Of a stretch of DNA of 64,000 bases, positions 8,449 to 22,686 are shown one piece after another. The position numbers were made by a program, and so were the translations under genes. Positions within the stretch are counted from its first letter, which is position 1. Every line of letters begins with the position of its first letter. A model generated the notes under the pieces. The model saw only the letters and a list, made by a program, of their open reading frames with translations, searched no databases and was not told where the DNA came from. Source of the DNA: a virus (lineage: Duplodnaviria; Heunggongvirae; Uroviricota; Caudoviricetes); IMG/VR virus record IMGVR_UViG_3300042890_002891, positions 66,831 through 130,830 of that record. One strand, written 5' to 3'.

Positions 8449-8522
8449 TGGTGCTCTCAACAAGGATCGAACTTGTGTCTATACATTACCAATGTATTGT
8501 ACTACCACTGTACTATGGGAGC
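8449..8522 (-). tRNA. tRNA-Thr(GGT)
   Basis: Cloverleaf, TTCGA T-loop, encoded CCA. Confidence 0.9.
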
Positions 8523-8881
8523 GTGGATTTCACGATAACAGGCCAGTGCAAGGTGTCTTGCCTGTGCCAGTCTATCAAGCACATACTTGGTCAATTCCGG
8601 ATCATCTCGACGACAACACGGACCACTGCGCCGTTCATCACAATTGGATTGTCTCCAATCATAACTGGTGGGAAAGAGTGGTTCCGATTCGGCGGGTTCA
8701 GAACGTTTCGGTTGTTTGGAATCTGTACAGTCTGATTGATTATTGTGTTGCATACATATACAACGCAGTAACCTGTTGTTGAGTTGACACAGATTGGCAA
8801 ACCTGCTAGAAGAACCCGACCGTAACACACAAGTATCTCGGAGTGACCATGTGCCAGAGGATCGGGCCGTGTTTCATTATC

Positions 8882-8955
8882 TGGAGCGGGTGAAGAGAAT
8901 CGAACTCTCGTCGTAACGTTGGCAACGTTCTGCTCTACCATTGAGCTACACCCGC
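8882..8955 (-). tRNA. tRNA-Gly(GCC)
   Basis: Cloverleaf, GCG start, U73, CCA. Confidence 0.92.
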
Positions 8956-8964
8956 TTATAAAAA

Positions 8965-9360
8965 TTAATTGTTGTCTGCTTGGCTGGCACAGTTTGGGCA
9001 CAGCAGTTGCAAGTTGTTTGCGGCATTGTTGTTGATGTTGCCATCTAGATGTTGCAGTACAAATTGCAAGGGTCGACCCAGATAGCTGTCAATGTTGCAG
9101 CATTCACAACGTTGTGGTCGAATCACCGCTGAATCAGCAAGACGTTGTTTGCGTTGTTCTACCACATCACTAGCCTTGACAGCAACAGGCACAGATTCAA
9201 TGGCCTTTGCCAACTGTTGCAGTTTGAATGGCGTCAGACTCTTGCGAGTAGCATCATCTGCTTGACATTTTATACTGCAAAAGCCCGGCGTAGATCGTTC
9301 CTGTGTCCAGGAATATCGATCTCTGCAATGTTCGCAATAATAAGTTTGATACACAGTCAT
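8965..9360 (-). CDS. HNH endonuclease-like zinc-binding protein
   Basis: CECC...QHLDGNINNNAANNLQLLCPNC; TAAATA box upstream; last HNH His is absent. Confidence 0.75.
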   Translation of the reverse strand: MTVYQTYYCEHCRDRYSWTQERSTPGFCSIKCQADDATRKSLTPFKLQQLAKAIESVPVAVKASDVVEQRKQRLADSAVIRPQRCECCNIDSYLGRPLQFVLQHLDGNINNNAANNLQLLCPNCASQADNN

Positions 9361-9388
9361 CCAGTATTTATCGCAAACATCACAGGCG

Positions 9389-9859
9389 TCAAGCTACCTT
9401 GAGGCTACGGAATCGATCAGCAGCATAACTGGCAGCAAAGGCTTCGGGCTTGACAAAAGGAATCACATTGCATGTGCCCTTAATATAGCCCACGGCCTGA
9501 CTGATAACACAGCTGGAACCGTGCATTTCGTTGGGGTTGATGTCAAGGTGTACTTCAACATCACGTCCATCTAGTACTTCAGCCAGTTGGAGATACAGTT
9601 CAGAAACCTTGTAGACTTCGGTCATGAGTCGCATGGCAGGTTTGCCGGGCTTGCTGTCATAGTCACGCTCACGCTGTACTTCACCAAACAACTTGCAGCC
9701 ATTGTTGCCGTTAATATGCACCACAATAGCCAACACATAGTCAGCATGCCATGCACCGTTGATTTTCACACGTTCACTGTCACAGCCCAGGTAAATTTTT
9801 GTTTCTGGTGTCTGTGTTCGAATAAACGCTGCCACCTGGGCAAAATCGATTTTTCTCAT
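9389..9859 (-). CDS. RNase H-like YkuK (DUF458) family protein
   Basis: IYLGCDS, EVHLDIN, KPEAFAASYAADR motifs; real start is MRKID (the longer ORF runs through a tRNA). Confidence 0.8.
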   Translation of the reverse strand: MRKIDFAQVAAFIRTQTPETKIYLGCDSERVKINGAWHADYVLAIVVHINGNNGCKLFGEVQRERDYDSKPGKPAMRLMTEVYKVSELYLQLAEVLDGRDVEVHLDINPNEMHGSSCVISQAVGYIKGTCNVIPFVKPEAFAASYAADRFRSLKVA

Positions 9860-9873
9860 TTGTTTCTTTCTTT

Positions 9874-9952
9874 TGGTACCCCGCCTCGGAGTCGAACCGA
9901 GAGAACTCTTCCTTTTGAGAGAAGCGACTTTGCCAGATTTGTCCAGCGGGGC
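9874..9952 (-). tRNA. tRNA-Leu(CAA), short variable region
   Basis: Cloverleaf, A73, CCA. Confidence 0.85.
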
Positions 9953-9953
9953 T

Positions 9954-10502
9954 TTAGTAGTTATATCGCTGACCAAATCCTACTGGATCAGCTTCATGTG
10001 CTTGAACAGCTTGAGTTATGGCTCGTACCACAAACTCATTGAACGAGATATCCAGTTCATGTGCGGCCTTCATGTATGTTAACAGTTCTTCATCTGTGAA
10101 GTCCACCGGCACTTGCACACGAGTATCATACTCTTGACCGGCCACAATGGCCTGAAACTTTTGAACAAAGTCATCGTCTGTCTCAAGATCAACATAGTTG
10201 ACATCATCCCAGGCTTCATTCATGTTAACACCGCGATTCTTTGCTTCCTTGTCATGCTTTTTCACATAGTCAGGATGCATCATTCTGTAGGCACGATCGT
10301 TTGTGTAGTCGCATACTTCCACACAATAGACCTTTTGGCTCCGGGTGCTGAACACAATATTGGCACTCCAGCCACCTGTGCCATGAACGCCATTCCAGGA
10401 GCTCAACTGATAGCTGTTGGATCCAAAGCACTGCCAGCCATATGTGTCGCCTTCGGTGATCCGGTAATCCACCAGTTCCATAAATTCTTTCATACTCAAC
10501 AT
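9954..10502 (-). CDS. conserved phage hypothetical protein
   Basis: ORF from MLSMKEF with AGGAG SD. Confidence 0.7.
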   Translation of the reverse strand: MLSMKEFMELVDYRITEGDTYGWQCFGSNSYQLSSWNGVHGTGGWSANIVFSTRSQKVYCVEVCDYTNDRAYRMMHPDYVKKHDKEAKNRGVNMNEAWDDVNYVDLETDDDFVQKFQAIVAGQEYDTRVQVPVDFTDEELLTYMKAAHELDISFNEFVVRAITQAVQAHEADPVGFGQRYNY

Positions 10503-10503
10503 G

Positions 10504-10920
10504 TTATACTCCTGATTGTTTGCGTGATTCACGCAGGTTGTGATGTGTGTCGCACAAGGTCTTGAGCCAGCCACCATGGCGCAGTACGCCCTGTGAGCCA
10601 CACTCTTCGCAGGCATGGCTTGCCCAGGCTGCTGCCATGGTCACCATACCGCTGATCTCATTGTCGCCGCCATCATAGTAGAAACGCAGTCCGCCAAATT
10701 TTTCTTTGATCTGTGCCACTGTCACTTGGGGCACCACTGGTGACTGCCGGTTCTGCCAGTCAATATGATGTTGGATACTGGCGCACAGGCTGGCAATAAT
10801 GGGCCACCATCCAGCAGCACATTCAATGCCACCGTATTGGCCCGCAAACATTTTGGGGTAAGTGGTTTCAAGATGCTTGACGAAAGCATCGTATTCTTGA
10901 AATTCCGGGTCCTGATCCAT
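10504..10920 (-). CDS. conserved phage hypothetical protein (QIKEKFGGLRFY, C-terminal Zn ligands)
   Basis: ORF with AAGGA SD; CxxC...CxxH. Confidence 0.7.
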   Translation of the reverse strand: MDQDPEFQEYDAFVKHLETTYPKMFAGQYGGIECAAGWWPIIASLCASIQHHIDWQNRQSPVVPQVTVAQIKEKFGGLRFYYDGGDNEISGMVTMAAAWASHACEECGSQGVLRHGGWLKTLCDTHHNLRESRKQSGV

Positions 10921-10994
10921 GAGTGATTCCTTTGTTGTGATAGAGATTGCGGCCTGATCAAGAGCACTGATCATGGCAGGATTGTTCCATTCCA

Positions 10995-11219
10995 TCATCG
11001 TCGTGTGGCGCCAATTCTGCTGGCCTTGTTCCAGTCGTATGCAACGCCATCGGGGCACACTCCATCTTGAACACTATCCACACCAAATATGCCACACGCT
11101 TCAAAGTCCGGACCCCGAATGGTCACAAACATGCCAACAATTCGAGCAAAGCTGATTGCTTCGCTCAATGTAGGACATGAGTTGAGTGGTAGTCCTGATT
11201 TGCTGATTACTTTGTACAT
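10995..11219 (-). CDS. hypothetical protein (MYKVISK...)
   Basis: ORF directly after a TTGACA-N17-TATAAT promoter. Confidence 0.6.
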   Translation of the reverse strand: MYKVISKSGLPLNSCPTLSEAISFARIVGMFVTIRGPDFEACGIFGVDSVQDGVCPDGVAYDWNKASRIGATRR

Positions 11220-11260
11220 GATTTCATTATACAGTATTTGTGACTTGTTGTCAAATGATT

Positions 11261-11345
11261 TGGTGCCCCAGGTCGGACTCGAACCGACACGCCACAAGGA
11301 CATGAGTTTCTAAGACTCACACGGCTACCATTACGTCACCGGGGC
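11261..11345 (-). tRNA. tRNA-Leu(TAG)
   Basis: Cloverleaf with variable arm, CCA. Confidence 0.92.
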
Positions 11346-11351
11346 ATTATT

Positions 11352-11427
11352 TGGTGCAACCTGTAGGAATCGAACCTACTTCAATGCCTCTTCAGGGCAC
11401 CGCTATAACCATATCAGCTAAAGTTGC
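11352..11427 (-). tRNA. tRNA-Phe(GAA)
   Basis: Cloverleaf, CCA. Confidence 0.88.
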
Positions 11428-11434
11428 ATGTTGT

Positions 11435-11525
11435 TGGCGGAAGGCTAGAGAGTTGAACTCTAAAGGCGCTATTAACGCTCGGCTGTTTTCAAGACAGATC
11501 CCATCGCCAATTGGGTTGGCCTTCC
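11435..11525 (-). tRNA. tRNA-Ser(TGA)
   Basis: Long variable arm, G73, CCA. Confidence 0.9.
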
Positions 11526-11531
11526 GTTGAG

Positions 11532-11609
11532 TGGAGCACAGGGTGAGATTTGAACTCACGATTTTTCAGATTTGCAATCTGGTGCGTTGGACCGCTCCGC
11601 CACCTGTGC
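11532..11609 (-). tRNA. tRNA-Cys(GCA)
   Basis: Cloverleaf, U73, CCA. Confidence 0.9.
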
Positions 11610-11616
11610 TTGATGT

Positions 11617-11690
11617 TGGTCTCTCGAGAGTGAATCGAACACTCGTCATATGGTCCCAAACCATAAATTCTACCATTAAACTACCGAGAG
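11617..11690 (-). tRNA. tRNA-Pro(TGG)
   Basis: Cloverleaf, C1-G72, CCA. Confidence 0.9.
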
Positions 11691-11694
11691 AATC

Positions 11695-11768
11695 TGGTAC
11701 CTCGTGACAGAATCGAACTGCCGTCTGCGCCGTGTAAAAGCGCGGCCCTACCATTAGACGAACGAGGC
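11695..11768 (-). tRNA. tRNA-Val(TAC)
   Basis: Cloverleaf, CCA. Confidence 0.9.
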
Positions 11769-11853
11769 ATAAATTAGTCGCACACAACTTGTCCTATTAT
11801 ACTCCGTGTGCTATGGAGAGTTTGGCTGCGAGTGTTAGTCGCTTAAATACTTG

Positions 11854-12018
11854 ATGTACACATATGACAACATTACCACAACTGGACTGCATATCCACTT
11901 GAGCATGAGCAAGCACGATACCTGTTATATTTTTGTCAATGATATTTTTAGTAACCGATTGACTCTGCGTTTCTTCAACAACACAGAATCGGCACTGGAG
12001 TTTATCCGCAGCTTTTGA
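11854..12018 (+). CDS. hypothetical protein, 54 aa (MYTYDNITTTGLHIHLS...)
   Basis: Manual translation; TAAATA late-type box 4 nt upstream of the ATG. Confidence 0.5.
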   Translation: MYTYDNITTTGLHIHLSMSKHDTCYIFVNDIFSNRLTLRFFNNTESALEFIRSF

Positions 12019-12046
12019 TCAACTGCGGATATTTTTGGATGGGATG

Positions 12047-12313
12047 TTACGCAGGATCAGAGATTGCTATACTAACAATATCTAGTCCGTATGTGTTTGC
12101 AAATGTGCCAACATAGGCCACGTCTTCCTCGGCTGCTGCTTGGTCCAACCAATCTCTGATCACAGTGTGATCAGAGATTATACCTGCAACATCCGTTGTT
12201 AGTCCAGCTAGAAATTTTGTTTGAAGATAAGCTAGACGTATTTCTCGAGCAGCTAAATAGCTTTCATCCAACGGGGAATTGGTCCCCCACACAATTGTAA
12301 CATTTTTTGTCAT
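12047..12313 (-). CDS. hypothetical protein
   Basis: ORF with AAGGA SD and upstream TAAATA. Confidence 0.65.
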   Translation of the reverse strand: MTKNVTIVWGTNSPLDESYLAAREIRLAYLQTKFLAGLTTDVAGIISDHTVIRDWLDQAAAEEDVAYVGTFANTYGLDIVSIAISDPA

Positions 12314-12359
12314 AAATTTTCCTTTATAGGATGAACACCAGGATCATCTTTGCTAATAT

Positions 12360-13196
12360 TTAGCAAATATTATTTTTTATATACTGCGAATACAGTAAAT
12401 CAGCAAAGTAAACATTCCAGTCATGTCCAAAATGCAACCGGTCTCGGGCTCTAGAAAATCCAAATTCGTGTCCCAACGAGTTTGACAAATTGTCAGATCT
12501 GCGAGGATCAAAATCTCGTTCGTAAGTGTAAACGTCAAAAGAATCTAGATCTTCGTCCTTGCACAATGTAATTTCTTGTAGCGGTATTTTTCTATTTTTG
12601 CAAATTTCTTGCAGCATGGCACGATTCTTGTCAAATTGATATTTTATATAGCTATTGTCATTGAATATATCAGCTGCCTTTTCCAGGCGCTCAATGATGT
12701 TAGCATAACCGTCGTGATTTCCTAGTATTATTTTGTACGGCAAGAATCGACGTCTAACAGAAATTTCTCTGGACGAAAACGCTGGCCACTGAACAAACAC
12801 TGCCCGTGGTTGCAACACATCAATGGTTTTGGCAATTGCTCGTACCACATAATCGCTGCTGGCAGCAGCAAGACCTAAATTATACAACTTGGTATCAGGA
12901 AACTTTGTTCTCAATATGCCAGGCCAGGTGTGTTCAACTGGACACCCAAGGCCAATGGTGCAACTGTCACCAATTGTTATTATAGAATCTCGGCCATCAT
13001 CAACAAATTCATCAGATCTAAATCCGTGTGTGTTCCACTGGTATGTGATATCAGTGTCTGAGTAGATACTGTCAGGATTAACTCCCGGCGCATCTCTGCG
13101 ATACCAGTAACTGGTTTCAGTGTGATCGGGCCCACCAGGAACATTTACAACACTAAAAATTCCTTTGTCCCAGTTGTTGAAATTGGAAGTCAGCAT
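12360..13196 (-). CDS. SGNH/GDSL-like hydrolase fold protein
   Basis: GDS-C-T-G, NLG, D..H motifs. Confidence 0.6.
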   Translation of the reverse strand: MLTSNFNNWDKGIFSVVNVPGGPDHTETSYWYRRDAPGVNPDSIYSDTDITYQWNTHGFRSDEFVDDGRDSIITIGDSCTIGLGCPVEHTWPGILRTKFPDTKLYNLGLAAASSDYVVRAIAKTIDVLQPRAVFVQWPAFSSREISVRRRFLPYKIILGNHDGYANIIERLEKAADIFNDNSYIKYQFDKNRAMLQEICKNRKIPLQEITLCKDEDLDSFDVYTYERDFDPRRSDNLSNSLGHEFGFSRARDRLHFGHDWNVYFADLLYSQYIKNNIC

Positions 13197-13855
13197 AGAC
13201 TATCCAGATCCAGTTTGCGTCTAAGTCTGATACTGAGAGTGGTTCTTGGCAAGCTACCTAGATTAATTGCACGGTGCGGAATAGTTACATTTAAATATAT
13301 CGGTTGAGTCAAGCTGGCGCGAGCAACTTCAACGGCCGAAGATTCGTCATATGTTGACCAATTCATTACAATTTTTTTCATTAACTCTGCAGGTGAATCA
13401 AAAAATTCTGGTGATGCAGGTGCGCTACCTAATTTTGTTGCTGCGTACCAAGCAGTATAAGAGTTATCAAAATTCAACAAAGGCAAATTGATAGCCTCAC
13501 CTGTTAAATCCAACGGAAAGGCATCCCCAACGTCGGAGTCTATGTGTATGGGCATGCTTTCTATGTGGGCTCCGTTGCTGGCAATAACAATCCAGGAAAT
13601 TAAATAAATGTCACGAGGTGTTATTTCTTTGCTGTCCAGCCAATCTGCAAATACAGGACATGCATTTTTAAGATTTCTGATATCGCGTAAAAATCGGTGA
13701 TCAACTATTTCATTGTTGTTAATCAACCCAGTTGAAGTAGTGTCTGTATCATACATTGACACATACAACGGACAAGTGGCTCGGAGATAAGTGTCAATCT
13801 CAGCAGACATCTGTGGCAGGTTTGGAGCAGCAAGTGTTTTGTAATAAGGTAGCAT
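13190..13855 (-). CDS. putative 2OG-Fe(II) oxygenase / cupin
   Basis: HxD...H...R arrangement (IHID, IPH, RTTLSIR). Confidence 0.55.
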   Translation of the reverse strand: MLPYYKTLAAPNLPQMSAEIDTYLRATCPLYVSMYDTDTTSTGLINNNEIVDHRFLRDIRNLKNACPVFADWLDSKEITPRDIYLISWIVIASNGAHIESMPIHIDSDVGDAFPLDLTGEAINLPLLNFDNSYTAWYAATKLGSAPASPEFFDSPAELMKKIVMNWSTYDESSAVEVARASLTQPIYLNVTIPHRAINLGSLPRTTLSIRLRRKLDLDSLC

Positions 13856-13861
13856 AGTAGA

Positions 13862-14533
13862 TTAAATCAAGTTAATGGCCAACATGTATTCATGTATCTG
13901 ATTCCAATTCTCAATTGTGACATCAGTTGTGTTTTGTTTCTGAGCTGGAGGATTACTGCTGACCAGTTTGTTTTCCAACATTAGATCTTCATAGTACGCT
14001 GTTTGAATTTTGTGTTTTAGTTTGTTTTTGTTTGATTCAACATTTGGATCAATCACTCGATTGTAGAGATTAACAACCATGTCCATGTCAACAGTTACAG
14101 AAGATGCAGTTATGGGTATCATCCAGGCATTCAGAGTGTATGCAATGGCCAATGATTTGAATGCTTTTAATTTGTCTCGACGTTCCAGAAACACAACTGT
14201 GGCATTTTGTGCGTTGACCCAGTCAACTATGTCTGGTCTGTTCAGATAGAATGAATGAATTTTTACTGATTTTGGCTTGCTGACTTTGGATAACCCAACT
14301 ATTCTGTCAGACATCATGGCAACAAATTCAGATTCAGAATACTGCGTAGGTTCCGGATCTTGATCAAAGGTAACATCGTTGCCGTGAAAATCAACTGTAA
14401 CAAACTTGCTGAACGGTTCTGAACAATTCACATGAGGCAAACAACTTTGTAGCCATGTGCTGCCTGATCTAGGATGCGAAATAATTATCACGTCTTGATC
14501 GGGATTTATGTCTAATAGATCAGAATTTGCCAT
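13862..14533 (-). CDS. sulfotransferase-like protein
   Basis: SHPRSGSTWL 5'-PSB motif, LERRD. Confidence 0.7.
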   Translation of the reverse strand: MANSDLLDINPDQDVIIISHPRSGSTWLQSCLPHVNCSEPFSKFVTVDFHGNDVTFDQDPEPTQYSESEFVAMMSDRIVGLSKVSKPKSVKIHSFYLNRPDIVDWVNAQNATVVFLERRDKLKAFKSLAIAYTLNAWMIPITASSVTVDMDMVVNLYNRVIDPNVESNKNKLKHKIQTAYYEDLMLENKLVSSNPPAQKQNTTDVTIENWNQIHEYMLAINLI

Positions 14534-14594
14534 GTTAAAAATTGCACTCTTTAATATAACCTATTTAGCCTGGCATACAAGCAATCTGAATAAT

Positions 14595-14668
14595 TGGTAG
14601 CCTGTCCGGGTAACGATCCTGGGTCGCTCGATTATCAGTCGAGTGCTCTGCCATTGAGCTAACGGGCT
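14595..14668 (-). tRNA. tRNA-Ile(GAT)
   Basis: Cloverleaf, CCA; atypical ATCG T-loop. Confidence 0.88.
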
Positions 14669-14678
14669 ATTCTAAAAC

Positions 14679-14752
14679 TGGTACGGGTGGAAGGAATCGA
14701 ACCTTCACTAACAGAGTCAAAGTCTGTTGTGCTACCACTACACAACACCCGA
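14679..14752 (-). tRNA. tRNA-Gln(TTG)
   Basis: Cloverleaf, CCA. Confidence 0.9.
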
Positions 14753-14760
14753 ATAAAACT

Positions 14761-14835
14761 TGGTGGTTGTGGTTGGTATCGATCCAACCTCCTCGCCTTA
14801 TGAGGGCGGTACGCATCCATCTACGTCACACAACC
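14761..14835 (-). tRNA. tRNA-CAT (elongator Met or Ile2)
   Basis: Cloverleaf, CTCATAA loop, CCA. Confidence 0.8.
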
Positions 14836-14840
14836 AAATT

Positions 14841-14916
14841 TGGGGTATCCTACCGGTATCGATCCGGTACTACCGCTTTCACAGAGCAGGGTGCAGGCCA
14901 CTACACTAAGGATACC
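14841..14916 (-). tRNA. tRNA-His(GTG)
   Basis: G-1:C73 pair, cloverleaf, CCA. Confidence 0.9.
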
Positions 14917-14920
14917 ATAT

Positions 14921-15033
14921 AGGTGCTCTCTGTGGCGCTTGAATCCACGGTAGCCCTGCTCTTCCTGGCACTTGTTCACACGCCGCGGGCTAGTGAAGTT
15001 CAGTGTTGTTCCAGTGTAGCTACTACAGAAAGC
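14921..15033 (-). ncRNA. tRNA-like RNA of unknown type
   Basis: 7-bp acceptor-like stem GCTTTCT/AGAGAGC plus ACC, T-like arm GTGG/CCAC, enlarged interior with a TAGCCC/GGGCTA stem. Confidence 0.5.
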
Positions 15034-15117
15034 ATTTATATAATACCATAGAAAAACACACTTGGCTCCCCTTGGTTGTTTGTATCTGTCAATTCAGATT
15101 GAAAGTGCGTTTATCTA

Positions 15118-15193
15118 TGGTAGGACCACTCGGACTCGAACCGAGGATTTACAGGTTAAAAGCCTGATGTTATAACCGCTTAACTATGATCCC
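15118..15193 (-). tRNA. tRNA-Lys(TTT)
   Basis: Cloverleaf, CCA. Confidence 0.92.
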
Positions 15194-15196
15194 ATG

Positions 15197-15271
15197 TGGT
15201 CCCTCCACCGAGATTTGAACTCGGACGTCACGGATTAAGAGTCCGGCATGCTGCCTTAACATCTTGAAGGG
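15197..15271 (-). tRNA. tRNA-Lys(CTT)
   Basis: Cloverleaf, CTCTTAA loop, CCA. Confidence 0.88.
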
Positions 15272-15332
15272 TTGGTATGTAAAATTGTCTTTCACGTGCC
15301 AACCCGGACCTACACAGGATCTGGAGTTGACA

Positions 15333-15359
15333 CTATAGTTTAGGAGATTTTCGTTTCAT
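15333..15359 (-). CDS. putative Lys-rich leader peptide MKRKSPKL
   Basis: 3 of 8 codons are AAA; the stop codon overlaps one arm of alternative hairpins that reach into tRNA-Lys(CTT). Confidence 0.5.
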   Translation of the reverse strand: MKRKSPKL

Positions 15360-15625
15360 ATAGTTCTTTCTTTGGTGTGACTGTTGTTATTTTCTGCGTG
15401 TGAATTTGCGCAGAAATTTTAAAAAATAATATTTCAACCCGCGTAGTGGGGCCAACTCAAATGCGAATTGTCCCGGCAGCTCACGCGGGACACTGCGTAG
15501 GCTCGATCAATGACTTCTTTGCTGCTTATGCTGCACTTCAGTTGTTTAATAACACTCTGCGACAGAGTTTAGCCGGATTACATCAAATATTCTTGTAACC
15601 TATCAGCTGCTCAGGATCATTTTAA

Positions 15626-17110
15626 TTACCTAAATGTTGGCAAATACTTCTCATCCGTAACTAGTTCAAGTAATCTTCTTTTGTATTCTGATAGAAACTT
15701 ATGGGGAGGAGTAGGTTCTTTTTCATAAAAGAGACTACCTGTGTTACTTTGCAGATCATTATATTTTTCAATGAGTCGTTGAGCTTGGAAAAAATTCATT
15801 TGGTCATTTTCCCATATTACAAAATTATGATGTGGTGCGTTGGGCATTTCGCGGTATCCAAATTTTGCATAATCTTTGGTGATACTGCTTTCAAATACTG
15901 CGCCGTTTGCTTTTTTACCAATTATTAATGGTCTAAAGGCGAACGAGTCTAATTTTATTTCACGTGTACTCAACGCCTTCAGAGTGCGCTCAGCTGATTT
16001 AATTGTTTCGTAAGGAGTTCCAATTATAAAACTGCCATGCAGATTCATGTCATGGTATGTTTCTTTAATGGTTGATATCATTGCAATTTGTTTTTCTCTA
16101 TTATAGCCTTTACCAACAGCTTGTCCACTTTTTCTATCCAACGTTTCTATACCAAAAAACATTGATCTTACTCCAATATCGTATAACATATGAATAGTTT
16201 CGGGATGAGTGCAAATCAAATCTAATCTTGCATAACACCAGAACTCAGGTTTAAATGGCAACGATACTATCATGTCTCTTAACTGCACAAGTTTTTCAAC
16301 TGAATCGTTGAAAGTGTCATCTACTATCATGTAAATACAAATTCCATGATTGTTATAATTATGCAATAGTTCTTGTTTCAGTGTGGCAGCATCTTTAATA
16401 AAATCTAGTTTGGTCTTACCGTTCATAGGGTACGAACAAAATGCACAGCTGAATATGCATCCTCTGCCAATTTCGATAGGTAATCTGGTATGATTCACAA
16501 CGTCTTCAGCACACCATGTCATGGTATCCTTTGAAAATTCGTATCCTTCTGCAAGCACATTGTTGATGATAATCTTGTTGTTGTTGATATTTTTATAGCT
16601 ATTTTTTAATACAACACCGTGTTTTATGTGATCAACCAAATTTACTATGTTTGCTTCAGCGTATCCCAGCACCAGGAAATCAGCATACTTGCATCGTAAT
16701 TCTGGTCGTACTATCGTACCTCCTGCGACAATTTTTATTGCAGCATTCAACTTGTTGATGTGTGCAAACACTTGATCATCAAAATCTGCTCCTTGCGGAA
16801 ATAAATTAAAATTTTGTCCATGAATATTAGAATTAGATCCAGCCGTCGGCCCAGTTGCAACACTTGTAATCAAATCATAGAATGTGGTGCTAAACCCTAT
16901 CATGCATGTGTCTGACCCTACGGCACGATTTAATAATGTATAAATTTCATCAATAGTAAACTCGGACACATGATTCACTACTAAACAAGAATACCCACTG
17001 GCACGCAGAGTATTTGCTAACTTGTATGCGCCAATAGCAGGAATAAATACTGAGTCATTAGGATTTCTGCGAACTATATCAGTAAAAAGAATAACATTAA
17101 AATTTGGCAT
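15626..17110 (-). CDS. B12-binding radical SAM protein
   Basis: GRGCIFSCAFC CxxxCxxC, DDTF, GIET motifs, N-terminal cobalamin-binding-like domain. Confidence 0.85.
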   Translation of the reverse strand: MPNFNVILFTDIVRRNPNDSVFIPAIGAYKLANTLRASGYSCLVVNHVSEFTIDEIYTLLNRAVGSDTCMIGFSTTFYDLITSVATGPTAGSNSNIHGQNFNLFPQGADFDDQVFAHINKLNAAIKIVAGGTIVRPELRCKYADFLVLGYAEANIVNLVDHIKHGVVLKNSYKNINNNKIIINNVLAEGYEFSKDTMTWCAEDVVNHTRLPIEIGRGCIFSCAFCSYPMNGKTKLDFIKDAATLKQELLHNYNNHGICIYMIVDDTFNDSVEKLVQLRDMIVSLPFKPEFWCYARLDLICTHPETIHMLYDIGVRSMFFGIETLDRKSGQAVGKGYNREKQIAMISTIKETYHDMNLHGSFIIGTPYETIKSAERTLKALSTREIKLDSFAFRPLIIGKKANGAVFESSITKDYAKFGYREMPNAPHHNFVIWENDQMNFFQAQRLIEKYNDLQSNTGSLFYEKEPTPPHKFLSEYKRRLLELVTDEKYLPTFR

Positions 17111-17177
17111 AATTGATCAATGCTGTATCAGGTGACAGCATAATTTTCATAATTGTTCCTTTAAACTATTTATATAG

Positions 17178-17251
17178 TGGTGCCCCACGACAGAATCGAA
17201 CTGCCATCACAGGATTACAAAACCAGTGTACTGCCATTGTACTAGTAGGGC
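17178..17251 (-). tRNA. tRNA-Thr(TGT)
   Basis: Cloverleaf, CCA; two mismatches in the anticodon stem. Confidence 0.85.
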
Positions 17252-17306
17252 GAAAAAGAACAGTTCAGGGACCTAACTTCTTAAGATGAAGAGTATGAAC
17301 TATATT

Positions 17307-17385
17307 TGGCTCCGCATCTGGGGTTCGAACCCAGCTAATCATTGATTAACAGTCAAGTCCGTGCACCTAGCTCGGATTCTGCGGA
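17307..17385 (-). tRNA. tRNA-Asn(GTT)
   Basis: TCC start, G73, CCA. Confidence 0.88.
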
Positions 17386-17394
17386 ATAAATTGT

Positions 17395-17484
17395 TGGCGG
17401 AACGAAAGAGACTCGAACTCTTAAAGCGGCTTTCACCACTCGACGGATTAGCAATCCGCTCCAATACCATTATGGGACCGTTCC
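17395..17484 (-). tRNA. tRNA-Ser(GCT)
   Basis: Long variable arm, G73, CCA. Confidence 0.92.
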
Positions 17485-17600
17485 AGGAAAATACTTAGCA
17501 GCATTGTGCTCTGCTAGAAAAATTTAACGTGGAGCCTTTCACTTGCCACGATTGGTACATCAAAGTACTTGAAGGTTACACCCAACCTCTAAGAGTGACT

Positions 17601-17689
17601 TGGTGGAAGTGGTAGGATTCGAACCTACAACGTTTCTTATGTGGCGGATTTACAGTCCGTTGCCTTCAACCAATTCGGCACACACTTCC
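17601..17689 (-). tRNA. tRNA-Tyr(GTA)
   Basis: Variable arm, A73, CCA. Confidence 0.92.
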
Positions 17690-17695
17690 TAATAA

Positions 17696-17770
17696 TGGTG
17701 GAGGATAGGAGAATCGAACTCCTGACTGAAGCTTGCAAAGCTACTGCGTTCCCAATTACGCCAATCCCCC
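17696..17770 (-). tRNA. tRNA-Ala(TGC)
   Basis: G3.U70 pair, CCA. Confidence 0.92.
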
Positions 17771-17777
17771 GTTATCT

Positions 17778-17854
17778 TGGTCGGTCCTGACGGATTTGAA
17801 CCGCCAACTTCTAGTTTCGAAGACTAGCACTCTATCCAGTTGAGTTAAGGACCG
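17778..17854 (-). tRNA. tRNA-Arg(TCG)
   Basis: Cloverleaf, A20, CCA. Confidence 0.9.
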
Positions 17855-17859
17855 ATATC

Positions 17860-17934
17860 TGGCGTACCCCCAAGGACTCGAACCCTGACTTAACGGTGTT
17901 GGAGACCGTTGTGCTGCCATTACACTAGAGATAC
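17860..17934 (-). tRNA. tRNA-Trp(CCA)
   Basis: Cloverleaf, G73, CCA. Confidence 0.9.
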
Positions 17935-18159
17935 AAAATTTCTACACACTGTCTGCGGCATCACAGCCCTGATCAGCTCAATGTGTGTATCGAAGCACTC
18001 TTCATGGATGGACCCACGTGTCTCCCGACGGATAGAGAGTGCTTCGATACGCTGTAATTTTTCATCTCACAAAAGAGACTCTATCCTACAGGCCGCCCAT
18101 TTGCCCATGTTTTGAGTGCGGGTCAGGATCTCGTTTCCTATACACACTATCTAACGCTG

Positions 18160-18195
18160 AAAAGAAAAAACCCTGGAGTTTTTAGTTCCAGGGTC
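18160..18195 (-). terminator. attenuator terminator GACCCTGGA-loop-TCCAGGGTT-TTTTCTTTT
   Basis: 9-bp stem plus U-tract; its 5' arm can alternatively pair with 18238-18253. Confidence 0.85.
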
Positions 18196-18221
18196 TTTTG
18201 AATTTGCGGATGTTAACTTAG

Positions 18222-18350
18222 TTACTCATCACACCTCTCAAGAGATCCCGGAACGCCTGGAATACTATTCATGCGACCATACGCATGTGACCAGGCGGAT
18301 ACCTGGGTAAACATGGGTTTCGTCAACAGTGAACAGAGAGTTGTTTTCAT
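18222..18350 (-). CDS. leader peptide, 42 aa (MKTTLCSLLTKPMFTQVSAWSHAYGRMNSIPGVPGSLERCDE)
   Basis: Manual translation; lies between a perfect promoter and a terminator; all 20 amino acids, 36 distinct codons. Confidence 0.7.
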   Translation of the reverse strand: MKTTLCSLLTKPMFTQVSAWSHAYGRMNSIPGVPGSLERCDE

Positions 18351-18360
18351 CTTAAATCCT

Positions 18361-18389
18361 ATTATACTTTATTTATCATTTGATGTCAA
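18361..18389 (-). promoter_or_regulatory. perfect sigma70 promoter TTGACA-N17-TATAAT with an embedded TAAATA box
   Basis: Exact consensus 10 nt upstream of the leader ATG. Confidence 0.85.
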
Positions 18390-18436
18390 CCACCAAAGAT
18401 AACTTCGTGTGAAGTATTTATACTTCACGGCCAAAA

Positions 18437-18510
18437 TGGTTGCGGGTGACAGATTTGAACTGCCGATGCTCCTGGCTTATGAGACCGGAGTGGTGACCAC
18501 CCTACCCGCT
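18437..18510 (-). tRNA. tRNA-fMet-like (CAT), reduced D-arm
   Basis: 1:72 mismatch, GCGGG/CCCGC acceptor, CTCATAA loop, ACCA; own TTGACA-N17-TATAAT promoter at 18533-18561. Confidence 0.8.
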
Positions 18511-18803: not shown

Positions 18804-19511
18804 ATGGAATACAAAACAATTTATCGTGGCAAAGAACTTCCTTTTGCGGATTATTTTGAAAGCAAAAAAGCCGGTCTGGTAGCAGAATTTCTAGCACAGT
18901 ATCCTGACTTCTCTAGCACAGAAGTGCTGAACAATTCAGAGATCATGCAAAACAAGATCACTGCCAAAATTTCTACCACCCAGGGCAGAGGCACTGCTTG
19001 GAAATTGCTACAGGTCAAAGGCAACTACTACGGTGAGCCTCCTTACTATGGTTCACAACCCTTTGAAGAATCAAAGTCGAAATTTCCAACCATGATAAGC
19101 ATCATTGATTATTTTGGATTTGATAATCTTGGCAGCGTGACCTATTCTGTACTGGAAGCCAACGGCATCATTGCCAGACACACAGGACCTGAAAATCGTG
19201 CAGGTAAATTTATTCGTTGCCACATACCTTTGATTGTACCCGAAGGTGATCTGGGTATGGAGATCAACGGAGAAGTAGTTGACTGGAGTGAATCCTTTGG
19301 ATTCAACAATCAAATCATACACAGTGTCTGGAACAACACTGATTATCGTAGACTGGTATTGATGATTGATATAAAACGCTCGTACATTGGGTTGCCTGAT
19401 GCGCCTCCGTGGACAGAAGAAACAAATGCTGATGCAGTTCCTTTTGAAAAGACTCACAACAAAGTGACATATGGCCCTCAAGAGATTATACCAGCAGTGA
19501 ACTTGAGATAA
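18804..19511 (+). CDS. aspartyl/asparaginyl beta-hydroxylase-like 2OG-Fe(II) oxygenase
   Basis: YSVL..IARHTG...RCHIPLIVP...HSVWN.T.YRRLVLMID. Confidence 0.85.
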   Translation: MEYKTIYRGKELPFADYFESKKAGLVAEFLAQYPDFSSTEVLNNSEIMQNKITAKISTTQGRGTAWKLLQVKGNYYGEPPYYGSQPFEESKSKFPTMISIIDYFGFDNLGSVTYSVLEANGIIARHTGPENRAGKFIRCHIPLIVPEGDLGMEINGEVVDWSESFGFNNQIIHSVWNNTDYRRLVLMIDIKRSYIGLPDAPPWTEETNADAVPFEKTHNKVTYGPQEIIPAVNLR

Positions 19512-19520
19512 CTCTGTAGT

Positions 19521-20198
19521 ATGAAACTCCAAACAATTTATCGTGGCAAAGAACTTCCTTTCGTGGATTTTTTTGAAAGCAAAAAAGAAGATCTCATAAA
19601 AGAATTTCTAGTACAATATCCTGAATTCCACAGTATCGAGCCGTTGCATAATTTAGACCTCTTGCAAAACAAGATCACAGGGGCATTGGGCAATAGAACC
19701 CACCCTGGATCTCCTTGGGAAATATTGCAAATCAAAGGTACTTATTTTGGCGAACCTCCATATTATGGCTCACAACCCTTTGAAGAATCAAAGGCAAAAT
19801 TTCCAACAGCAACAAGTATTATTGATTATTTTGGATTTAGTGTCGTTCGGTCAATTTCGTATTCGGTTCTGGAACCGCACAGTACCATAGCCAGACACTG
19901 GGACCATGAAAATCATGAAGGCAAATTCATACGTGTTCATGTACCCTTGATTGTGCCCCATGGTGATCTGGGCTTAGAGGTCAATGGGGAAGTGGTTGAT
20001 TGGAGTGAATCCTTTGGCTTCAACAACCTAAGATTACACAGCGCCTGGAACTTCACGGACCATCGTAGACTGATATTATTACTTGATCTAGAACGCTTGC
20101 ATCTGGGGTTGCCTGATGAGCCATCCTGGTCCGAAACAACCAATGCTGATACCGTACCCTTTCCCAAGACACCTGTTTTTTTATCAAAGCGCAATTGA
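19521..20198 (+). CDS. aspartyl/asparaginyl beta-hydroxylase-like oxygenase (tandem paralogue)
   Basis: Same motifs; highly similar to 18804-19511. Confidence 0.85.
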   Translation: MKLQTIYRGKELPFVDFFESKKEDLIKEFLVQYPEFHSIEPLHNLDLLQNKITGALGNRTHPGSPWEILQIKGTYFGEPPYYGSQPFEESKAKFPTATSIIDYFGFSVVRSISYSVLEPHSTIARHWDHENHEGKFIRVHVPLIVPHGDLGLEVNGEVVDWSESFGFNNLRLHSAWNFTDHRRLILLLDLERLHLGLPDEPSWSETTNADTVPFPKTPVFLSKRN

Positions 20199-22480: not shown

Positions 22481-22487
22481 CCGCCAT

Positions 22488-22511
22488 AAAAAAACCCGCT
22501 TGCTGCGGGTC
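22488..22511 (-). terminator. attenuator terminator GACCCGC-AGCAA-GCGGGTT-TTTTT
   Basis: GC stem plus U-tract; its 5' arm overlaps the antiterminator arm CAAAGACCC. Confidence 0.85.
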
Positions 22512-22536
22512 TTTGAAGGATGCGTTTTTGATCACA

Positions 22537-22626
22537 TCAACAAAGACCCAGGCTCCCGTCACGCTCATAGGCCATCCCCGAATCAATTGTCGGTATGACT
22601 GCTGAGAGGATAGTGAGCCGGTTCAT
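22537..22626 (-). CDS. leader peptide, 29 aa (MNRLTILSAVIPTIDSGMAYERDGSLGLC)
   Basis: Leaderless ATG 6 nt after TAGACT-N17-TATACT; 26 distinct codons of 29; last codons form an antiterminator arm. Confidence 0.65.
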   Translation of the reverse strand: MNRLTILSAVIPTIDSGMAYERDGSLGLC

Positions 22627-22686
22627 AAGTGTAGTATATATGCCTTTGCGACAAAAGTCTATTATTTTGGCAAAATTTGTGGTGGT

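Follow-up and report, generated by a model that had tools for sequence, protein, structure and literature searches.

What governs the transcription of a large phage tRNA array? To our knowledge, control of phage tRNA gene expression has hardly been addressed. The purpose of the genes themselves has been debated for decades, with codon compensation set against escape from tRNA-targeting defences (PMC10264068, PMC11464382). The window considered here, a stretch of 64,000 nucleotides, belongs to a virus record that is a single contig of 261,673 bp from an uncultured freshwater giant phage; its minus strand carries ~30 tRNA genes and a tmRNA gene between 4.6 and 23.8 kb. The family-B DNA polymerase of this phage shares no more than 49% identity with the enzymes of Sinorhizobium phage Phosso, Agrobacterium phage Atu_ph07 and Rak2-like jumbo phages. 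The region of interest has zero nucleotide matches among 50,697 cultured phage records, and the corresponding cassettes of two relatives are likewise without a DNA match in the cultured-phage database.

The main tRNA transcription unit is headed by a consensus promoter, a short open reading frame (ORF) and an intrinsic terminator, in that order (Table 1). These parts, and the long tRNA run that follows the terminator, had been proposed in a preliminary description made from the window alone; promoter, ORF and terminator are present as described, and ARAGORN confirms the tRNA run. Together they probably form a ribosome-operated transcription attenuator of the leader-peptide type. The argument for this reading draws on the parts themselves, on their conservation, covariation and geometry, and on their position ahead of tRNA genes, all of which can be observed in the sequence and its relatives.

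Table 1. Features of the leader cassette and of the region it precedes, in window coordinates
Feature	Coordinates	Strand	Description
Sigma-70-type promoter	18361..18389	(-)	-35 TTGACA at 18389-18384; 17-nt spacer holding ATAAATAAA; -10 TATAAT at 18366-18361; 12/12 consensus
Leader ORF	18222..18350	(-)	ATG at 18350; 42 codons; TAA at 18224-18222
P1, long imperfect hairpin	18265..18336	(-)	Inside codons 5-29; from minimum-energy folds; Trp codon in 3' strand near tip
Antiterminator 5' strand	18238..18254	(-)	Codons 33-38; from folds and family pairing
P2, small hairpin	18206..18234	(-)	Enclosed by the antiterminator helix; holds the stop codon; seen in nascent-RNA folds (window; L008/L012 variants)
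Terminator foot and 5' arm (shared strand)	18186..18201	(-)	Pairs with 18254-18238 or with the terminator 3' arm
Intrinsic terminator	18156..18199	(-)	13-bp stem 18199-18187 / 18177-18165; loop ACUAAAAAC; T-tract to ~18156; -17.5 kcal/mol
Structured RNA, conserved	17935..18155	(-)	Between the terminator and the first tRNA; in nearly all relatives
tRNA arrays, putatively controlled	8449..17934	(-)	Trp, Arg, Ala, Tyr, Ser, Asn, Thr, Lys x2, His, Met, Gln, Ile, Val, Pro, Cys, Ser, Phe, Leu x2, Gly, Thr; protein genes interspersed

The leader promoter is one of three in 16.5 kb that match the consensus at every position. Its distance from the ATG, 10 nt from the -10 box, is the longest such gap in the family of relatives described below. 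An AGGA in this interval was considered as a Shine-Dalgarno site and rejected: it directly abuts the -10 box, and the pattern in the family is a start codon placed 6-10 nt past that box. With the AGGA so placed and the ATG only 10 nt off, the transcript should be nearly leaderless; we infer a start at the AUG or 2-3 nt before it. In E. coli-like systems a 5' UTR of 2-3 nt disfavours leaderless initiation. The leader peptide has no match to a Pfam or PHROG family, and a search with a back-translated pattern of its 42 residues gave no matches.

A strong promoter and a strong terminator ~195 nt apart are the usual signature of a small gene or small RNA, and a peptide that matches no family would suit such a gene. 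The locus could on that account be a self-contained early gene, whose small protein or ~190-nt RNA acts alone; pairing with the foot of the terminator would then only shape the 3' end, and the tRNAs would be transcribed from elsewhere. There is a precedent for products of this kind in the Sinorhizobium trp attenuator, whose terminated RNA (rnTrpL) and peptide (peTrpL) act in trans (PMC6614838, PMC7298713). The relatives of the cassette, taken up below, speak to this reading directly.

Attenuation depends on an alternative structure. The preliminary description held that codons 33-38 serve as an antiterminator by pairing with the terminator's 5' arm. Such a pairing is found: 14 of 16 positions are paired between 18253-18238 and 18201-18186 (one G-U, two mismatches; -15.2 kcal/mol), and the helix belongs to the minimum-energy fold of a nascent RNA that lacks the terminator 3' arm. 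A duplex of equal strength occurs in ~1% of 149-nt upstream segments, whether random genomic or dinucleotide-shuffled. At E<=1, a search of Rfam over 18389-18160 returned nothing beyond a 16-bit partial match to an unrelated 5' UTR model; cassettes of the relatives also lacked an Rfam match, and none matched the Trp_leader or T-box families.

Taken singly, the window could be a coincidence: an ORF and a pairing that happen to lie beside an ordinary terminator in a tRNA region. Short ORFs and partial complements are common, and the codon statistic of the preliminary description was picked after the sequence had been seen. The test of such a coincidence is recurrence. IMG/VR was scanned with a 22-nt motif, the terminator loop and 3' arm, which is common to the window and one more distant phage. 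The 22 matches were all homologous cassettes, and with the window and its close relatives there are 22 distinct sequences, from uncultured large phages. The cassettes were retrieved via the terminator, not via ORF content; therefore, their ORFs are an unbiased sample. That ORF, pairing and codon diversity all recur in 22 cassettes found without reference to them leaves coincidence a scarcely credible account.

The family repeats the plan of the window in some detail. Terminators hardly vary in loop or 3' arm. Promoters match 10-12 of the 12 consensus positions in all 22, and their spacers have ATAAATAAA in common. In 15 of 23 rows the ATG follows the -10 box by 6-10 nt; members with a long 5' UTR have an AAGGA Shine-Dalgarno site in it. 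Every member has an open frame of 36-67 codons, mostly leaderless, although the chance that one 42-codon frame is open is 0.13; each record has a single copy of the cassette. In all members the last codons pair with the terminator foot (duplex energies -15.4 to -24.5 kcal/mol), and 11-17 nt of the foot are paired when the nascent RNA is folded to minimum energy. Relative to the antiterminator strand, the stop codon comes -2 to 20 nt later in all 22, and 6-19 nt separate it from a 20-nt foot window downstream. From the established size of the ribosome footprint, this is the geometry expected of an attenuator, in which a terminating ribosome would block the antiterminator and not the terminator. 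A comparative check proposed in the preliminary description had called for a short ORF of poorly conserved sequence, high codon diversity and covarying pairing; the 22 cassettes ahead of tRNA genes display all three.

These relatives also weigh on the self-contained gene, and make it distinctly improbable. The peptides are almost unalignable between clades, whereas length, geometry and pairing are kept. The first tRNA gene on the same strand is 231-1004 nt past the terminator in 21 of 22, and tRNAs on the opposite strand are absent; for 18 of 22 relatives the interval between terminator and first tRNA has no sigma-70-type promoter scoring 10/12 or better, from which the tRNAs might otherwise be transcribed. 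In ~10 relatives, moreover, a conserved gene of ~54 codons begins 10-25 nt past the T-tract. This leaves no room for a promoter, so that the gene is expressible only by read-through, a classical mark of attenuators. The covariation described next likewise favours a structure that excludes the terminator.

The ~54-aa protein (M..LKQR.REV.FTTEHTL..EQL..LI.DK.ERA) is exemplified by L025:1266-1427 (-), with equivalents in L014, L020, L022, L023, L028, L034 and L035. No family matches it convincingly, and the genome from which the window comes has no homologue.

Covariation was assessed in two ways. RNAalifold found no structure in a plain MAFFT alignment of the whole leaders, which align too poorly; hence the use of partner-swap energies and of a model-guided alignment. 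When each antiterminator strand is paired with the foot of its own cassette, the mean is -18.6 kcal/mol, versus -15.3 kcal/mol for foreign partners (permutation P<5e-5). Matched hexamers of foot and antiterminator illustrate the point: GGACCC/GGGUCC, AGACCC/GGGUCU, GAACCC/GGGUUC and AGCCCC/GGGGCU. For the second approach, a covariance model of the antiterminator state was built and the members were realigned to it. Both sides change in 10 of 13 pairs; 77.7% of cells are paired, versus 72.8+-1.1 in shuffles, with 0 of 500 shuffles reaching the observed value; and sliding the partner strand by one column reduces pairing to 53-62%. As the model-guided alignment was fitted to the structure, the partner-swap test offers the greater independence.

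Variation at short range can be followed in metagenome contigs. Searched by protein words, the 42-aa product has matches in three clusters of 42-residue peptides, at 100, 88 and 85% identity. The contigs of these close relatives are ~99% identical to the window over ~500 nt, apart from one patch in which 12 substitutions are packed into 40 nt (18222-18260, codons 31-42; window versus L008-L012). The patch sites are in the antiterminator strand and in the 5' strand of the stop-codon hairpin, and both helices are strengthened. Six of the final nine residues are altered, and the antiterminator helix is retained and slightly stronger (-15.4 to -17.4 kcal/mol). Five substitutions in the antiterminator 5' strand leave its pairing intact, and a G-to-A change at 18195, in the terminator foot, is matched by C-to-T in the antiterminator strand. 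Each of these contigs continues from the cassette into tRNA-Trp, Arg, Ala, Tyr and so on. Between close pairs pN/pS is ~0.4 (Nei-Gojobori), a value from few substitutions, in counts too small to decide peptide constraint.

A different reading of the ORF, as the precursor of a RiPP, was prompted by its invariant N-terminal 33 and variable C-terminal 9 residues, together with the presence of radical SAM and hydroxylase-like genes nearby. It was rejected: the variable patch is the antiterminator strand, with its pairing kept, and the enzyme neighbours are missing in relatives that bear the cassette. The radical SAM gene (15626-17110, minus strand) lies within the tRNA array and is without a protein match in the cultured-phage database. 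Two tandem Asp/Asn beta-hydroxylase-like genes (18804-20198, plus strand) split the tRNA region from the opposite strand; a search with the hydroxylase query returned no matches. Both the radical SAM and the hydroxylase-like genes are missing at the corresponding places in the cassette-bearing relatives.

Several further elements surround the cassette. The RNA between the terminator and the first tRNA has a hairpin, with loop AACGAG(R) and a covarying stem (AGGA/UCCU, GCGA/UCGC, GGGA/UCCC, CCAGU/ACUGG); next come GCACU..AAACA..CAAAYGGGCGG and then a long hairpin with a conserved stem and a variable insert. It has no Rfam match. A scan for sigma-70-type promoters found no promoter-like site of 9/12 or better in 17935-18155; the best before tRNA-Trp scores 8/12. 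Phage-specific promoters may exist downstream. A third perfect TTGACA-N17-TATAAT promoter stands at 11226-11254 (minus strand), directly past tRNA-Leu(TAG) and inside the region of the putatively controlled arrays.

On the other side of the leader promoter lies a tRNA-Met(CAT)-like gene (18437-18510, minus strand) with an odd D region, called by ARAGORN and not by the Rfam tRNA model. It is kept in the close relatives, with a small insertion; its own 12/12 promoter in the window (18561-18533) is missing there. Between this gene and the leader promoter is an 8-bp hairpin, GUGAAGUA-UAAA-UACUUCAC (18411-18430, minus strand), in which contig L012 has a compensatory A-to-G / U-to-C change. Its loop region spells TATAAATA, at 18423-18416; this was considered as a candidate T4-type late promoter, and the motif is not over-represented in the genome.

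A second cassette is found in the same window at 22488-22661 (minus strand), with a promoter, a leaderless 29-codon ORF and GGGUCUUUG, which pairs with the terminator foot CAAAGACCC. Each of the five tRNAs that follow (Glu, Asp, Val-GAC, Gly-TCC and Ile-TAT) has a cognate codon among the first 21 of this ORF (P = 0.014). The design is the same; nhmmer did not link this cassette to the leader family, and homology is not supported. A weak Rfam Trp_leader match at 22486-22545 (E = 0.87) was taken as chance.

How the leader would work follows from its two exclusive structures. Host RNA polymerase would initiate at the consensus promoter; in the emerging RNA, codons 33-38 would pair with the terminator foot and 5' arm, enclosing the stop-codon hairpin; with the antiterminator in place, the terminator would be blocked and transcription would run on into the conserved structured RNA and the tRNA genes. 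Suppose now that the ORF is translated. A ribosome that paces the polymerase, and has come to the last ~ten codons or the stop, would melt or cover the antiterminator strand and would not reach the terminator stem; once the antiterminator is removed the terminator would form, and the transcript would end at ~18160. A ribosome delayed in the first ~29-32 codons, or one never loaded, would leave the antiterminator intact and so permit read-through. That is, slow decoding by any of many tRNA species would give more copies of the phage tRNAs, and decoding capacity would be under negative feedback.

The 5' part of the ORF has structure of its own. Across the family it folds better than shuffles (mean z -2.4; 13 of 22 below -2), and P1 may be a hairpin at which the polymerase pauses. 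It is not a counterpart of the trp-type 1:2 hairpin: its 3' strand ends ~10 nt before the antiterminator strand, and the two have no strand in common. An untranslated phage leader is therefore predicted to read through, in contrast to an untranslated trp leader, which terminates.

What, then, might the ribosome be sensing? The preliminary description noted that the window leader has 36 distinct codons in 42, with every one of the 20 amino acids and the full set of four Thr codons, and a recount gives the same figures. So many distinct codons have P = 0.01 under uniform codons and 0.0007 under genome codon usage; 0 of 3050 windows in real genes reach 36. Each leader in the family has 18-20 of the 20 amino acids, where its length would predict 16-17 (Fisher P = 1.8e-6 across 14 clades, the clade of the window excluded). 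Counts of distinct codons equal or exceed the uniform expectation in nearly all members, and lie far above it in several (37/42, 41/47, 39/43). In the sensing stretch, where a stalled ribosome would spare the antiterminator, the excess of amino-acid types is smaller (P = 1e-4). Residues of Val, Glu and Asp often come from codons of the antiterminator strand, at which stalling would bring no read-through. The word 'pan-codon', applied to this leader when it was first described, is not strictly apt. Codons 1-32, the sensing stretch of the window, have single codons for 17 amino acids, no codon runs, and an avoidance of certain codons.

The avoided codons are those read by other tRNAs. The downstream arrays contain every isotype but Asp and Glu, and those two are upstream, behind the second cassette. 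Twelve codons are served only by the upstream tRNAs; codons 1-32 contain none of them (P ~0.001, with uniform or genome usage), and the last ten codons contain six. Every one of codons 1-32 can be decoded, strictly or through U34 wobble, by a tRNA from the downstream arrays, an enrichment that in the window reaches only P = 0.04 against genome codon usage. Two members of the array are unusual as genes: the Ser(TGA) tRNA shows up as a tRNA-Sec-like Rfam match, and a divergent tRNA-Asn(GTT)-like gene (~17306-17385, minus strand), missed by both ARAGORN and Rfam, was found by alignment to the Asn gene of L008.

The comparison of leader with array was carried to the relatives using extended sequence of nine records (Table 2). 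The close relatives L016 and L031 differ in Val, which is in both leader and array of L031 and in neither of L016. Where arrays are complete or nearly so, leaders have 19-20 amino acids, and the one or two that are missing do not match (L034, L030, L022). The matching of leader to array rests on two subfamilies with reduced arrays and is suggestive, not proven.

Table 2. Amino acids absent from each leader, and those absent from the tRNA array behind it (one-letter code)
Sequence	Missing from leader	Missing from array	Remark
Window	DE	DE	
L015	EV	DE	
L017	DEY	DEY	
L016	ADGV	ADEGV	
L031	ADEG	ADEGT	
L021	ADGV	AEG	Mismatch for Asp, Val, Glu

An attenuator of this build might also answer to a signal other than aminoacyl-tRNA. 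One candidate is 70S initiation on a leaderless AUG, which would make the leader a sensor of ribosomes or initiation factors, or an infection timer; another is nascent-peptide arrest, like that of TnaC or SecM. Leaderless or near-leaderless starts in most members are what the former would lead one to expect. As to the latter, peptides of different clades are hardly alignable, yet the motifs HSL, A-Y-W-S/F and D/G-R recur in them; the repeated Trp and D/G-R, with the pN/pS of ~0.4, allow some function at the level of the peptide. Either would be free of another difficulty: single codons are weak starvation sensors, as is established from the trp and his leaders, and a lone hungry codon may stall a ribosome too briefly to matter. 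The recurring motifs are sited, however, in the two strands of P1, in the first two-thirds of the ORF, so that constraint on the RNA can account for them. A signal of these kinds would also leave unexplained both the family-wide excess of amino-acid types and the amino acids absent jointly from leaders and reduced arrays. On this evidence such a signal seems unlikely.

Decoding by tRNA remains the preferred signal for the attenuator, in a narrower form than the one first put forward. In the preliminary description the leader was a general sensor of translation health acting on phage tRNA synthesis. The attenuator design in that proposal is backed by the 22 cassettes, with a start that is near-leaderless and has no Shine-Dalgarno drive. 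Its generality fares less well: from its codons, the leader looks fitted to the array it would control rather than to translation in general. One may go further and suppose that the leader is a roster of its array, with about one codon per downstream tRNA species, which shifts as tRNA genes are gained and lost (Asp/Glu, Tyr, Ala/Gly, Val). It would then be a homeostat of decoding speed, on by default when translation fails and so also a trigger against host immunity that cleaves tRNA. We consider this fuller version evenly poised between right and wrong; its connection to anticodon-nuclease defence is speculation.

The nearest known systems are the enterobacterial attenuators (trpL, hisL, leuL, thrL, pheL and the multivalent ilvGMEDA leader). 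Like these, the phage cassette has a promoter-proximal short ORF and a terminator ahead of the genes presumed to be regulated; the antiterminator uses the 5' strand of the terminator; the position of the ribosome would pick the helix; and a ribosome at the stop codon would favour termination. In structure it appears to be a leader-peptide attenuator in every respect save the codon runs and the 1:2 hairpin. It differs in being encoded by a phage and in preceding tRNA genes rather than biosynthetic enzymes. The phage leaders are mostly leaderless and, without runs of a single codon, sample 17-20 amino acids once or a few times each.

Other systems share one or another of these aspects. In mycobacteria, leaderless polycysteine short ORFs are cysteine-responsive attenuators (bioRxiv 10.1101/834739). 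These resemble the phage leader as leaderless 5' short ORFs whose translation sets downstream expression, as it would in the phage; they differ in that a codon run senses one amino acid, and the targets are genes of cysteine metabolism. T-box riboswitches are likewise terminator/antiterminator switches that report tRNA status and control genes of the translation apparatus; unlike the phage leader, they bind one uncharged tRNA directly and have no ORF. As with rnTrpL and peTrpL of Sinorhizobium, a terminated leader RNA and a peptide would be released at each attenuation in the phage, and these may have roles of their own. Full-text literature, with older subscription literature outside its scope, yielded no published attenuator ahead of phage or cellular tRNA genes.

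With its consensus promoter and a length of ~230 nt, the self-contained cassette is a candidate for a compact sensor of translation capacity. It can be synthesised for a laboratory host, so that the idea is directly testable. If the attenuator reading is true, phages measure decoding and adjust their own supply of tRNA, and classical attenuation would reach beyond amino-acid biosynthesis to the tRNA pool, and beyond a single amino acid to many.
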